This document shows positions 33,909 to 37,799 of a DNA stretch of 64,000 nucleotides, in pieces. The stretch comes from Escherichia phage MX01. The number at the start of each line of letters is the position of its first letter. The first letter of the stretch is position 1. Where the stretch lies: sequence record NC_031934.1; one strand, written 5' to 3'. Both the position numbers and the translations under genes were made by a program. Below the pieces are notes generated by a model that was given only the letters and a program-made list of their open reading frames with translations, had not been told where the DNA came from and searched no databases.

Positions 33909-34104
33909 TTATAATTTCGACATCAGCCCAATGCCCGTAACCAGGCAGACGGTCTTCAATAGATAATCCGCCATCAGATTTCAGCATTTTAATTGTTTTA
34001 GTATATGGTTCATCTTGCGGATGCACAGGAGATAAATCAGTTACACGATAAGTCACTTCGACCATTTCCGTACCTAATAATTTCTGAATCAATTTCTTAA
34101 CCAT
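33892..34104 (-). CDS. Hypothetical protein
   Basis: 70-aa ORF in 30.x operon, overlapping upstream stop. Confidence 0.4.
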   Translation of the reverse strand: MVKKLIQKLLGTEMVEVTYRVTDLSPVHPQDEPYTKTIKMLKSDGGLSIEDRLPGYGHWADVEIISVKDV

Positions 34105-34105
34105 A

Positions 34106-34300
34106 TTATCCTCGCTTTAAACATTTGATTACAGACAGTTCACCACCCGTGCGAACATCTTCAGTTCCATCGACCCATAGGACGGTGTAGGCTTCTTTAA
34201 TAGTAACATTACCTAATTTAAAAGCAGGTAGAACCTTTGAAATCATTCCAGGAATACCTACACCTTTTAGCTGAACAGTTTGTGATAAGAATAGTTGCAT
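34106..34300 (-). CDS. Hypothetical protein
   Basis: 64-aa ORF tightly packed in 30.x operon. Confidence 0.35.
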   Translation of the reverse strand: MQLFLSQTVQLKGVGIPGMISKVLPAFKLGNVTIKEAYTVLWVDGTEDVRTGGELSVIKCLKRG

Positions 34301-34587
34301 TAGAACCTCATCTGAAAGCCATGTGATTTAACATTACCGCCGTAGATGTCAGACGTATTGACTTCACGGGCAGCGCTCGGGTCGATATTGATATCATGGT
34401 TGAGCTTAGTGATTGCTAGGGTATCACGACCATTAACAGTACGGAATTCTACCGGGCATACAACATCGGCGTAAGCCTTAATAGATTCACGAGTGGGCTG
34501 TTTGTCGGCAGGAACGTCTTTACCCGCTTTAGAGAAAACAACTTCACAGAAATTTTTACGAGTATCGAAATAAGTGGTCATAAACAT
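34300..34587 (-). CDS. Hypothetical protein
   Basis: 95-aa ORF, start overlaps downstream stop. Confidence 0.45.
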   Translation of the reverse strand: MFMTTYFDTRKNFCEVVFSKAGKDVPADKQPTRESIKAYADVVCPVEFRTVNGRDTLAITKLNHDINIDPSAAREVNTSDIYGGNVKSHGFQMRF

Positions 34588-34627
34588 AATATTTTCCTCA
34601 AAGGGGCCGAAGCCTCCATTTTTAAGA

Positions 34628-34993
34628 TTAGATATCGAATTCGTTCAGAACTACATCAAAGATTGCTTCCAGGTGTTCAGGTTTAGCTCGGTTGCTCAGG
34701 ATGTGACGAATCCAAGTTTTAACCAGAAGCTTACGATTAACACCGTTCCAGCAAGGATGGGTACCTAAATCACGTTGACGGAAATCATCATCTAAAGCGA
34801 TTTTAAAAGTAGAACCTTCCATTGTGATTGAAACCGTAATACCATTTTCAAAGCGCATATAAACGTAGTTAGGAGTCATGCACTGTTCGATTTCGCACAC
34901 CGCGCCGTTGTTGTGTTTCCACAGGCAAATAACTTCAGAAGAACCAGCGATACCGTTAGAAACATATTTACGTTCGAAGTTGATGTAGTTCAT
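34628..34993 (-). CDS. Hypothetical protein with duplicated promoter/leader cassette
   Basis: 121 aa; 39-nt 5' leader identical to that of ORF 35067..35399. Confidence 0.55.
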   Translation of the reverse strand: MNYINFERKYVSNGIAGSSEVICLWKHNNGAVCEIEQCMTPNYVYMRFENGITVSITMEGSTFKIALDDDFRQRDLGTHPCWNGVNRKLLVKTWIRHILSNRAKPEHLEAIFDVVLNEFDI

Positions 34994-35054
34994 TTTATTC
35001 TCCAGTTTGTTTTCGTATTATTTGGTACAGGTCTATAATAACACAACCTGTACC
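34991..35054 (-). promoter_or_regulatory. Early promoter/leader cassette copy A with inverted repeat GGTACAGG/CCTGTACC flanking -10 (PeSL-like)
   Basis: 39-nt leader identical to copy B; 8-bp inverted repeat arms at 35024-35031 and 35047-35054. Confidence 0.6.
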
Positions 35055-35066
35055 AAAGTAAAACAT

Positions 35067-35399
35067 TTATTTCACAACATTCCAATTTTTCATATCAAGT
35101 TTACCAACTTTTTTCATCTGAGCAATCAGACGTTCAGCGCGTGTACGGGCATTAACATAATAGAATTCACCATTTTTGTTTTCTTCAATACGACCAGTAA
35201 TTACAGTTTTCAGTTCATAAATCCAACCTGTAAAGAAGTTGTGAAGCTCGATGGTGAACGTGAAATCAGTACCCGTACCTTCAGTTGTTTCAACTTCGAT
35301 GATATCACCTTCAACTGCAGTCAGGACCCACATGGTTTCTTGATATCCGCCGTTGAAACATTTAGCTTTAACAGATGCATTCAGATTTACAGTTTTCAT
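35067..35399 (-). CDS. Hypothetical protein with duplicated promoter/leader cassette
   Basis: 110 aa; identical leader GTACCAAATAATACGAAAACAAACTGGAGAATAAAATG. Confidence 0.55.
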   Translation of the reverse strand: MKTVNLNASVKAKCFNGGYQETMWVLTAVEGDIIEVETTEGTGTDFTFTIELHNFFTGWIYELKTVITGRIEENKNGEFYYVNARTRAERLIAQMKKVGKLDMKNWNVVK

Positions 35400-35470
35400 T
35401 TTATTCTCCAGTTTGTTTTCGTATTATTTGGTACATGTCTATAGTATCATGCCTACCGGAGATGTACACC
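35397..35470 (-). promoter_or_regulatory. Early promoter/leader cassette copy B
   Basis: Identical 39-nt leader CATTTTATTCTCCAGTTTGTTTTCGTATTATTTGGTACA (plus strand) and TACTATAGAC -10. Confidence 0.6.
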
Positions 35471-35495
35471 ATTTTTTAAAGATTTAGAAACAAAA

Positions 35496-35517
35496 ATGGG
35501 ACTCCGAAGAGTCCCAT
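35496..35517 (-). terminator. Terminator hairpin ATGGGACTC-CGAA-GAGTCCCAT
   Basis: 9-bp stem, tetraloop, T-tract on the minus strand; downstream of the small basic ORF. Confidence 0.7.
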
Positions 35518-35522
35518 AACTT

Positions 35523-35684
35523 ATGCCTGAGGCTTACCAAAGCAAGCAGCATCTGCACGCAATACTGCACGAGCACGAGCTTGAAGCTTATCAACTACCT
35601 GATTGATACGCTTGTTGGACGCACGCTTGTAACCAGCGCGTTTAGAGGTACCGTCAACTACTTTAACTTCTTTCTTAGCCATTT
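35523..35684 (-). CDS. Small basic protein (53 aa), below ORF-track cutoff
   Basis: Hand-translated MAKKEVKVVDGTSKRAGYKRASNKRINQVVDKLQARARAVLRADAACFGKPQA; followed by a tetraloop terminator on the minus strand. Confidence 0.4.
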
Positions 35685-35949
35685 TAAATCTCTTAAATTA
35701 GAATGCAGGACTTATTGGCGTTGCCTGCGCAAGCCCTCAAGGGGAACATAGGTTTCGGATATTTAACGACAGGATAACCATAAACCTCGTCATCATACCA
35801 ACCACGACTTAGACAGATAACCTTTTTCTGACGCGTGATAGTACAAAATACATTCAAGAGGTACACCGTAAAATTGTCGGGGCGGTACTTCTAAAACATA
35901 CCGATTCGTAAATCGATAATCAGACAATTCGACGGCTCCTCGATTTAAC

Positions 35950-36198
35950 TTACTTCAGGGTAATAATAAAATGACGTACTGCTTTACGAGCTGCTGAAGC
36001 CAAAGGCTTAGAAAATTTCAGTTCATCTTTAGCTTCCAGTTCAGCAGCCAGAGTAGCCTGTGCTGGGTTCAGATGTTTGAAATAACGCAGGATTTCCAGT
36101 GCTTCGGCTTCAACATCAATAGATGCACCGTAGTTTTCGTGACCGTTGTTCCAAGCGTTGCGTTGCAGTTCAAGAGCGTGATTCAGATGTTTGTTCAT
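35950..36198 (-). CDS. rIII: rIII lysis inhibition accessory protein
   Basis: 82 aa, same length as T4 rIII; position adjacent to gene 31. Confidence 0.8.
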   Translation of the reverse strand: MNKHLNHALELQRNAWNNGHENYGASIDVEAEALEILRYFKHLNPAQATLAAELEAKDELKFSKPLASAARKAVRHFIITLK

Positions 36199-36336
36199 TT
36201 TAGTTTCTCAATTCGAGATAAAGATTGGCGAGCACGTTCGTCTCAGTATTTCCAGCTGAGTTGTATCTCGCCGTATGGAAGAGGCTAACCCCATACACCA
36301 ACCGAAGTTCTGTATGACATCAACCTCTTCGTAATT

Positions 36337-36660
36337 TTATTTATACAGGCAAGGAATTGCTTTATAATGACAGGTAACGAATTTTTGTTTAATTTCTTTA
36401 GGTTGTTTAATACCTAATGCAACCAACGGATGAGGCACGTTAGCAATCTTACCCACAGGAAGTGGAGTCAAATCACCTACTTCACAAAAATCTTCAGGGA
36501 CATCAGGTCCTACAGAATAAATTTCACAAAGTTCAGGGATTTCACCTTGATGAAGTTTGCCAATAACGATACCAGATGCAGTAGTTTCTTCATCGCCAGC
36601 TTGTTTTGGTTCGGAAACGAGAATAACATATTCTCCGACCGCTTTAATAGGAAGTTCCAT
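36337..36660 (-). CDS. 31: Co-chaperonin gp31 (GroES analogue)
   Basis: [28 protein letters not shown]...[23 protein letters not shown] closely matches T4 gp31. Confidence 0.95.
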
Positions 36661-36718
36661 ATTTAATCCATATTGTTTTGTTGATAGATTAATAATAACA
36701 CGCTATTCTTAAAGCATA

Positions 36719-37018
36719 TTACAGGACAAGCAGAGTTTCGGTCTGAAGGCCGTTAACAGAAATCAGCTTATCGAAACGGAATGAACGCCAATCATTAACC
36801 TTGGTATCAAATACTCTGATATAATTAACAGGTTCTTTATTGGCTTCCGGCCCAGGGGCCTGGACTTCTTTATACGGAAGCAGGTCTAAGTCACGGGTAC
36901 AAGTCATGCGACGGGCACTACCATCGGCTTTTTCAAACAGGACTTCGTGAAAACCAACAGACAAAATAGTCTTGACTTTTTCACGGAGACGAATTGTTTC
37001 TTGTTCAGTTAAAATCAT
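36719..37018 (-). CDS. Hypothetical protein (31.x slot)
   Basis: 99-aa ORF with RBS. Confidence 0.5.
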   Translation of the reverse strand: MILTEQETIRLREKVKTILSVGFHEVLFEKADGSARRMTCTRDLDLLPYKEVQAPGPEANKEPVNYIRVFDTKVNDWRSFRFDKLISVNGLQTETLLVL

Positions 37019-37020
37019 AA

Positions 37021-37254
37021 TTATTCCAGAATAGTTTTGATAGTGGTTGCGTTACGCTCTTTTAGAGCTCTTAATAGGTTATGACAATTATCAAGAATAG
37101 GCACCGTTTTATATTTCATTTCGGCGCGAACCCAATCAGATTTATAGTACGATTTCCATCGAGAGAAAAAGTACTTTTTATATTCTACTGAATAGGCTAC
37201 TAAGCTTTCACCTTTTGAGTTCAGACCTGAAAATTTAACTAGACGAAATTTCAT
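37021..37254 (-). CDS. Hypothetical protein (31.x slot)
   Basis: 77-aa ORF. Confidence 0.45.
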   Translation of the reverse strand: MKFRLVKFSGLNSKGESLVAYSVEYKKYFFSRWKSYYKSDWVRAEMKYKTVPILDNCHNLLRALKERNATTIKTILE

Positions 37255-37799
37255 TATTCACCACAATAGTTTTGAATTGATTCCCAGTTCAGAGAACGGA
37301 GACCTGTACGATTATACTGGATAACTTCTATGCCTGATTCACGGAGGATATCGTCCCATCCTTCAGGATTTCGGTCATATAGCTCAGCATAAACCAATGT
37401 TTTAATTCCAGACTGCGCAATAGACTTAGCACAATCTGCACATGGAGATAACGTCACGTACATCGTAGCGCCGTCAATAGAACTTCCGGTACGAGCTGCA
37501 AACAAAATGGCATTCAGTTCAGCATGGATTTCATTTTTGGATGACCATGCTGCATGAGCCATACGGTGTTCTTTAAGAAGAACGGATTTGTGCGACATCC
37601 GCGCTGGGTCATACACAACACGGGTCCAGTCTTGTTCCACAGCGTGGTCACAACAGTTAACACCACCGGATGGTGAACCGTTATACCCTGTAGAAATAAT
37701 GCGGCCATTCTTTTCAATAACCGCGCCCACTTTCCATGAACAACATTTTGATTCCTGAGAAATCAGATATGCAATCTGAAGGTATGTGCTTGCTTTCAT
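37254..37799 (-). CDS. cd: dCMP deaminase
   Basis: 181 aa; HAELNAILFAA and PCADC zinc-binding cytidine/dCMP deaminase motifs. Confidence 0.93.
   Translation of the reverse strand: MKASTYLQIAYLISQESKCCSWKVGAVIEKNGRIISTGYNGSPSGGVNCCDHAVEQDWTRVVYDPARMSHKSVLLKEHRMAHAAWSSKNEIHAELNAILFAARTGSSIDGATMYVTLSPCADCAKSIAQSGIKTLVYAELYDRNPEGWDDILRESGIEVIQYNRTGLRSLNWESIQNYCGE

Follow-up and report, generated by a model that had tools for sequence, protein, structure and literature searches.

A conserved spacer RNA with an H-type pseudoknot between rIII and 30.9 of T4-type phages, and its possible role as a leader of gene 30.9

In the gene 32 mRNA of phages T4 and T2, a pseudoknot operator serves the autogenous translational control by gp32; the pseudoknot is thought to nucleate protein binding, and gp32 polymerises on the unstructured, AU-rich tract downstream of it. 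In the T4 genes e, soc, 49 and I-TevI, which have hairpins that sequester the ribosome binding site (RBS), a late promoter inside the hairpin gives an open transcript. Processing of the tRNA precursor of T4 also yields two stable RNAs, C and D. The promoter-early stem-loops (PeSLs), said to have been described by Arbiol et al. in 2010, are reportedly modular intergenic cassettes of T4-type phages. Pseudoknots are high-affinity targets of ribosomal protein bS1 and operators of ribosomal protein (r-protein) genes, and that of mycobacterial rpsO lies upstream of the initiation site (PMC10931766).

Here, we describe the tract between rIII and 30.9 in a stretch of 64,000 nt from Escherichia phage MX01 (NC_031934.1; "the window"). 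By comparison of its sequence with those of relatives, the tract is non-coding and extremely conserved, and has a strand-specific secondary structure. We put at about one half the probability that it is a structured, cis-acting leader that sets the translation of 30.9 or the stability of its message, probably via a bound protein. We rate this leader as a new RNA family of a kind, the structured mRNA leader with a pseudoknot, that is already known. A literature search, which did not reach older Lithuanian T4 papers, found no description of the rIII–30.9 spacer.

The rIII–30.9 locus and its transcript

The window comes from a T-even-type phage (Dhakavirus): the 851 bases around the tract are 98% identical to Dhakavirus genomes, those of Salmonella phage vB_SalM_ABTNLsp5, IME341 and IME08 among others. 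All genes here are on the minus strand, in the order cd, 31.2, 31.1, 31 (36337–36660), rIII (35950–36198), tract, 30.9 (35521–35682, including the stop codon), terminator and 30.8 (35067–35399). The upstream neighbour of the tract, with its stop codon at 35950–35952, encodes an 82-aa product that matches PHROG 1457, lysis inhibition accessory protein (E = 7.7e-42), and is annotated as rIII in relatives. The downstream neighbour appears in the list of open reading frames as a 53-aa basic protein and is named 30.9 in IME08. From the rIII stop to the 30.9 ATG, the spacer measures 267 nt (35683–35949, minus strand). The initial annotation had described a 53-aa Lys/Arg-rich ORF and a tract without ORFs of 60 aa or more. 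Both exist, but the ORF had been placed at 35523–35684, 2 nt off and without a strand, and the tract had been given as 265 nt. That account gave no strand, did not recognise the ORF as 30.9, and mentioned neither the pseudoknot nor the mosaic of modules seen across genera.

The strong terminator that had been placed next to the basic ORF was confirmed as a minus-strand intrinsic terminator (35517–35496). It has a 9-bp stem, a UUCG loop and a T-run (ATGGGACTCTTCGGAGTCCCAT plus TTTTGTTTCT; also written as GGGACUCUUCGGAGUCCC with a U-run), and it ends the 31–rIII–30.9 transcription unit. The T4 record X54536 places a middle promoter upstream of gene 31, a late one where gene 31 ends and an early one after 30.9, and none in the rIII–30.9 gap. 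Our promoter and terminator scan found no minus-strand consensus of either type inside the tract or flanking any of its modules, and the late promoter TATAAATA was absent from the tract. Since no promoter or terminator consensus lies inside the tract, and no promoter is annotated in this gap in the T4 record, the tract is most simply read as an internal part of the 31–rIII–30.9 transcript and would not be separately transcribed. A candidate MotA middle promoter at GGGCTTGCG was rejected by inspection: it lacks a correctly spaced TAnnnT, and other genera do not keep the spacing.

Other spacers of the region have features of their own. The spacer between gene 31 and rIII (36199–36336, minus strand) has an exceptionally stable predicted fold, at −47.7 kcal/mol (z = −5.0; 0 of 200 shuffles were as stable), with two long hairpins; because the end of gene 31 overlaps with a late promoter of the T4 type, TATAAATA, this spacer would be the structured 5′ UTR of the late rIII transcript. 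The spacers upstream of 30.7 and 30.8 (34994–35066 and 35400–35480) contain an identical plus-strand stretch of 39 nt, CATTTTATTCTCCAGTTTGTTTTCGTATTATTTGGTACA, flanked in each case by a GGTAC.../...GTACC-type stem-loop and AT-rich, promoter-like sequence. They resemble the PeSL cassettes of T4-type phages, and these PeSL-like repeats of promoter and stem-loop flank 30.8 and 30.7 in the window. In IME08, an extra insert of ≈65 nt directly 3′ of the rIII stop (L002:2482–2553) has a sigma-70-like promoter (TTGGCA-17-TATAAT) and a stem-loop. As this PeSL-like insert lies just upstream of the first spacer module, A, the leader and 30.9 would there have a promoter of their own.

The product of 30.9 (gp30.9) is small and very basic, with a length of 53–59 aa across relatives and the invariant motif SKRAGYKR..SN.RI. 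It belongs to PHROG 1427, of unknown function, and its homologues are confined to T4-like phages, where all are labelled "hypothetical". No Pfam match and no detectable similarity to any ribosomal protein were found, and a search of PDB sequences gave only noise-level matches to SlmA (E = 0.2). The AlphaFold model, of moderate confidence (mean pLDDT 70.6), has a disordered basic N-terminus followed by two helices. In T4, 30.9 is annotated as 72 aa, starting at an ATG within the loop of spacer hairpin H2. Because this upstream ATG is not conserved (it is ACG in the window), translation probably begins at the shorter form's start, MAKQ/MAKK. The upstream start or a misnaming of the gene is found in several T4-type records (L005:972–1190, L041:1554–1772, L006:1127–1345 and L038:679–897), and several pipelines name gp30.9 "1,4-alpha-glucan branching enzyme, GH-13", a label that nothing here supports. 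In some records, including T2 (L035:536–742) and NHEP29 (L036:523–726), spurious CDSs have been put inside the spacer.

Conservation and structure of the spacer RNA

The tract has a GC content of 41.2%, compared to 40.1% for the whole window and 30–35% in two promoter-type spacers downstream, and is, as the initial annotation had stated, less AT-rich than intergenic DNA nearby. A query with 265 nt of the tract matched 774 phage records at 70–99.6% identity, including Dhakavirus, Mosigvirus and Tequatrovirus (T2, T6 and the T4-type RB55), and the 3′ 110 nt also matched Gelderlandvirus STML-198 and Pectobacterium phage PM2. Identity to T4 is 92% for the E1–H2 part of the spacer (its 3′ 118 nt) and 86% for module A, compared to 83% for rIII and 69% for 30.9. 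When aligned with IME08, C6, T6, RB55 and OMNI12, the spacer has long blocks without any change, in contrast to the divergent coding DNA of 30.9 and rIII on either side.

This conservation is not due to coding, since the conserved blocks carry 1-nt indels among relatives, not multiples of three, and since the spacer ORFs differ in frame and extent among the window, T4, T6, T2 and PhAPEC2, or are absent, the STML-198 spacer having no ORF of at least 25 aa. The longest minus-strand ORFs of the tract, of 57 aa (GTG start) and 44 aa (TTG start), are not conserved in relatives. Two coding readings, the 57-aa GTG ORF and a 19-aa leader peptide starting at "AUGAUG", were rejected, because relatives do not keep the frames and several genera lack AUGAUG. 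ARAGORN found no tRNA genes in the whole window, in agreement with the earlier failure to see a cloverleaf in the tract. With Rfam 15, cmscan under permissive filters (E ≤ 10) over 34000–37500 gave no match inside 35683–35949, and a search of eight related loci, some of which contain the additional module E3, gave no match to the spacer at E ≤ 5.

Folding stability was uninformative for the whole tract (z = −1.6 on the minus strand and −1.0 on the plus strand), and the E1–H3 segment, folded as a single sequence, was no more stable than its shuffles (z = +0.18). With so weak a thermodynamic signal, the structural case rests on covariation, drawn from about 25 distinct, phylogenetically related sequences.

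By this measure, the tract contains an H-type pseudoknot, E1 (35747–35797, minus strand). In stem 1, GAC(G)AGG (35785–35791) pairs with CCUGUC (35768–35773); in stem 2, the loop sequence GGUU (35776–35779) pairs with AACC (35751–35754), 22 nt downstream. Stem 1 and the AACC of stem 2 are separated by an A-rich loop 3, GUUAAAUAUCCGA. Stem 2 was spotted by eye through co-changes of loop and tail: AAAGUU/AACUUU in CkP1, GUGAG/CUCAC in VIPECLOM01, GUAG/CUAC in PM2 and CAAGGUU/AACCUUG in a Proteus phage. In a MAFFT alignment of 24 distinct but phylogenetically related sequences, 8 of the 13 pairs were changed on both sides, across about ten Tevenvirinae genera. Each helix contributed four of these double changes, with 87.6% pairing in helix 1 and 74.9% in helix 2. 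The covariation score was 0.275, compared to 0.114 ± 0.019 in shuffles, none of which (0/500) reached it, and every slid register scored lower. The loop and linker nucleotides are as strongly conserved as the stems.

A covariance model of E1 found a single copy in the window, at 76.7 bits, the next match having 13.8 bits. Exactly one gene-sense copy was present in each of 54 loci (54/54), always in the order rIII–E1–30.9, as would be expected, since these loci are largely the model's training sequences or close copies of them. The position of E1 between the two genes varies. Its distance from the 30.9 start codon is ≈75 nt in T-even phages and ≈270 nt in locus L016; E1 begins 0–10 nt after the rIII stop in L016, L045, L060 and L046, and 150–300 nt downstream of rIII, behind other modules, in the T-even phages including the window.

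Upstream of E1, module A (35850–35946, minus strand) is an irregular hairpin of ≈97 nt that emerged from the RNAalifold consensus and from covariation. Its outer stem, GAGG/CCUC, is followed by a middle helix of 13 bp and, at the tip, by an 8-bp hairpin with a UNCG tetraloop as its cap (UACG in the window, UGCG in T4). Of the 25 consensus pairs, 5 have compensatory changes; pairing holds in 99% of cells, compared to 25–62% when the partner strand is slid, and 0 of 500 shuffles reached the covariation score. Three of the pairs are G·U in most or all sequences, which makes the fold specific to the minus-strand RNA.

Between A and E1 lies a variable segment, V1 (35798–35849, minus strand), delimited from alignments. 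It contains a hairpin, GUCAGA-AAAAGGUUA-UCUGUC (35812–35832), whose CAGA/UCUG stem is CAGC/GCUG in the Mosigvirus loci L023, L037 and L059. V1 is absent from T4, and many relatives have the ≈140-nt E3 at this site instead. Some close relatives, CE1 and UGJNEcP1 among them, have neither A nor V1.

Three small hairpins lie between E1 and 30.9. H1 (35734–35744, minus strand), seen directly in the sequence as CCC-CUUGA-GGG and followed by a conserved CUUG, corresponds to the hairpin potential that had been pointed out at CCCTCAAGGGG, which is real and kept in most relatives. Its loop varies across genera (CUUGA, UUCGA, CUCGA or CUAGA), and the hairpin is absent from PM2 and CkP1. H2 (35705–35728, minus strand; GCAGG-CAACGCCAAUAAGU-CCUGC) was judged by folding each sequence separately, since MAFFT lost the register of its 3′ strand. 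The predicted pairing is kept with stems that differ by genus: GCAGG/CCUGC, GGGAG/CUCCC, GAGAG/CUCUC, GAACUGG/CCAGUUC, GGGAAC/GUUCCC and GAAAGG/CCUUUC. An alternative minimum free energy hairpin, GGCUUGC-GCAG-GCAA(N)GCC, was rejected because it is not conserved outside the T-even phages, whereas H2 is. The idea that H2 is an intrinsic terminator or attenuator was likewise dropped: the terminator scan reported only the terminator after 30.9 and one intragenic site, and U-rich sequence follows H2 only in some genera.

In H3 (35690–35703, minus strand), also from per-sequence folding, an anti-Shine–Dalgarno (anti-SD) UUCU is predicted to pair with the SD sequence of 30.9, AGAG. In the window, the hairpin is short and AU-rich, with four pairs, but it was predicted in nearly all variants examined. 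The two strands change together, with UUUUC/GAGAA in Tequatrovirus (T4) and UCUCC/GGAAGA or UCC/GGA in other genera, showing that this predicted SD/anti-SD pairing is kept across genera.

The module mosaic in the Tevenvirinae

A gap of 120–398 nt separates rIII and 30.9 in every Tevenvirinae genus sampled, and is filled from the same kit of modules in differing orders and combinations. The sampling covered Tequatro-, Mosig-, Dhaka-, Gelderland-, Mosuguk-, Kagamiyama-, Kanagawa-, Karam- and Winklervirus and Klebsiella phages of the Marfavirus type; scans of metagenomes and of IMG/VR added 12–14 loci each. CE1 has a minimal version, E1–H1–H2–H3. The order is E2–A–E1–H1–H2–H3 in T4, E1–E2–E3–H1–H2–H3 in L016 and H1–E3–E1–...–H2–H3 in EcS1.

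Two of the modules are absent from the window. E3, possibly the most interesting RNA of the locus, is a multi-helix element of ≈140 nt (ACGGCAAGUGCAUGC...GCUAACGGUGUGCAACAGAUAAG) with a GNRA-capped hairpin that replaces V1 in many T4-like phages. It was found in OMNI12 (L006:896–1047) and in L016, L017, L042–L045, L048, L050–L057, L060 and L061. It is present in single copy in 404 phage records, with 80–100% identity across genera, and has no Rfam match. Of its 41 predicted pairs, 9 are compensatory; 98% of cells are paired, and 0 of 500 shuffles reach its score. E2, a small hairpin with the pattern NNN-U-AC-tetraloop-GU-NNN, follows GGUGAUU or GGAGAUU, as in T4 (L041:1355–1385; UCAC-U-GC-CUUA-GU-GUGA), and is also found in L012–L014, L016, L017, L046, L047 and L049. 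By eye, its lower stem covaries (CAC/GUG, CGC/GCG, UGC/GCA and AGC/GCU). E2 precedes module A in T4 and follows E1 in other genera.

Other genera have further small hairpins where the spacer begins (L017:1118–1145, L040:676–700, L045:≈620–640 and L048:≈570–590). The hairpins CCAUG-UGUACG-CAUGG of Klebsiella phages and CUCUG-UGUACG-CAGAG of PM2 have the same loop and compensatory changes in the stem, and Kanagawavirus and Karamvirus have a GNRA-capped UUGCC-GUAA-GGCAA at the start of the spacer.

Possible function and relation to known systems

The initial annotation had suggested that the tract could be a structured 5′ leader or a small RNA. Poor conservation or the lack of a conserved structure, either of which would speak against that proposal, is the opposite of what was found: the tract is a conserved, structured RNA of the minus strand. 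The leader fits better than the small RNA, because the last hairpins abut and pair with the 30.9 RBS, and because the gap in X54536 has no promoter. As a leader, the tract would be part of a polycistronic message of the minus strand, transcribed from promoters ahead of gene 31 and of rIII and terminated after 30.9. The spacer RNA folds as a chain of independent modules, A, V1, E1, H1, H2 and H3, in which H3 would keep the 30.9 RBS paired, leading to low translation by default. The sequence-conserved E1, aided by the stable UNCG-capped hairpins, may be a platform for a protein that sets the translation of 30.9 or the stability of the message, in the manner of the pseudoknot operators of gene 32 and of r-protein mRNAs. 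We infer this regulation of 30.9 and its binder, for which the candidates are the small basic gp30.9 itself, in an autoregulatory role, and ribosomal protein S1. Several features go against the leader reading: the thermodynamic signal and H3 are weak, A and V1 are dispensable in some close relatives, and, as the main weakness, E1 is not at a constant distance from the start codon and in several genera directly follows the rIII stop. Such a variable position is unusual for an RBS operator and would fit independent modules or a role at the 3′ end of rIII equally well, which keeps alive a processed RNA, an rIII- and S1-linked element and a riboswitch as rivals.

On the model of RNAs C and D, the modules might be processed from the polycistronic transcript and act in trans as stable sRNAs or RNPs, for example as host-factor decoys or regulators. 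Each module seems to work alone, since orders and combinations vary by genus; loops and linkers are conserved as strongly as stems; A and E3, with their stable UNCG and GNRA caps, are the size of small RNAs; and the conservation of the tract exceeds that of the gene downstream. However, none of the modules has a promoter or terminator beside it, the elements do not occur at other places in the genome, they always lie in the sense orientation between the same two genes, and the 3′-most hairpins are physically part of the 30.9 RBS. We regard processing as a tentative alternative, on the unlikely side. It is unlikely, too, that the spacer is a cassette array of autonomous, exchangeable RNAs (E1, E2, A and E3), released from the mRNA and acting in trans on host or phage machinery, possibly by sequestering S1 or a defence nuclease and possibly as RNPs with the basic gp30.9. 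If true, the best-studied family of phages would have a class of non-coding RNA that has so far gone unrecognised.

The loci in which E1 starts just after the rIII stop raise the question of whether it belongs to rIII, as a 3′-UTR pseudoknot that binds ribosomal protein S1 or protects the 3′ end of the rIII message. The affinity of bS1 for pseudoknots (PMC10931766), the binding of the RIII protein to bS1 domains (PMC9409239) and the universal order of rIII, E1 and 30.9 in the sampled loci would agree with this; but the argument is circumstantial, and the distance of E1 from rIII in T-even phages, with other modules in between, makes such a link quite doubtful. E1 could also be conceived as a small ligand-sensing riboswitch aptamer, similar to preQ1-I with its A-rich tail, for which H3 would be the expression platform. 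An H-type pseudoknot with invariant loop nucleotides and covarying stems, upstream of an SD-sequestering hairpin, has the appropriate form, but no Rfam riboswitch model matched even at E ≤ 10, other modules fill up to ≈200 nt between E1 and H3 in several genera, E1 and H3 are not connected by any alternative pairing, and the regulated gene is without a metabolic association, making a riboswitch very unlikely. We give the least credence of all to a decayed or unannotated protein gene or a DNA element, such as a promoter, a recombination cassette or the scar of a mobile element. "Hypothetical protein" CDSs were auto-annotated in the tract in T2, NHEP29 and other records, the presence of modules differs between close relatives in a manner suggesting recombination, and IME08 has its promoter-like insert after rIII. 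Against this, there is no conserved ORF, the indels are not multiples of three, the tract scan and the T4 record list no minus-strand promoter, and the constant G·U pairs and the pseudoknot make sense only in a minus-strand RNA.

The tract must be under strong selection, since it evolves more slowly than both of its neighbour genes, contains a pseudoknot supported by covariation and consists of modules that are reused in about ten genera. Although T4 and its relatives serve as the reference for the study of gene expression in phages, the spacer is unannotated in hundreds of genomes or filled with spurious "hypothetical protein" or "glycogen branching enzyme" CDSs. This conservation, combined with the shuffling of modules, would surprise a T4 specialist. 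The modules represent new RNA families for annotation pipelines and a natural case of RNA structural elements shuffled as units, and the tract offers a handle on the function of gp30.9 and possibly on the RIII–S1 axis.

Compared to the preQ1-I riboswitch (RF00522) and other small pseudoknot aptamers, E1 has a similarly compact H-type fold with an A-rich 3′ loop and tail, but its loops differ from those of preQ1-I, it has no covariance-model match at E ≤ 10, and in many genera it is not located beside the expression platform. Like the PeSLs, the modules are conserved cassettes of intergenic DNA that T4-type genomes gain, lose and shuffle; unlike PeSLs, they have no promoter consensus, are present in single copy per genome and covary at the RNA level, including in a pseudoknot. 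The RBS-sequestering hairpins of genes e, soc, 49 and I-TevI are matched by H3, a local hairpin that contains the SD sequence in a read-through transcript, although the tract lacks the late promoter. The leaders of r-protein genes (rpsO/uS15 of E. coli and mycobacteria, uS4 of the alpha operon and bL20) similarly place a pseudoknot before the gene of a small, very basic protein; however, gp30.9 has no detectable similarity to r-proteins, and the putative 30.9 leader, unlike those of r-protein genes, is a mosaic of shuffled modules. From the gene 32 operator, the tract differs in having no sequence similarity, a distance between E1 and the start codon that varies by genus, and the hairpins H1–H3 after the pseudoknot in place of an unstructured AU-rich tract. 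What it has in common with that operator is an H-type pseudoknot in an untranslated leader that is conserved among T-even phages and lies upstream of the RBS without covering it.
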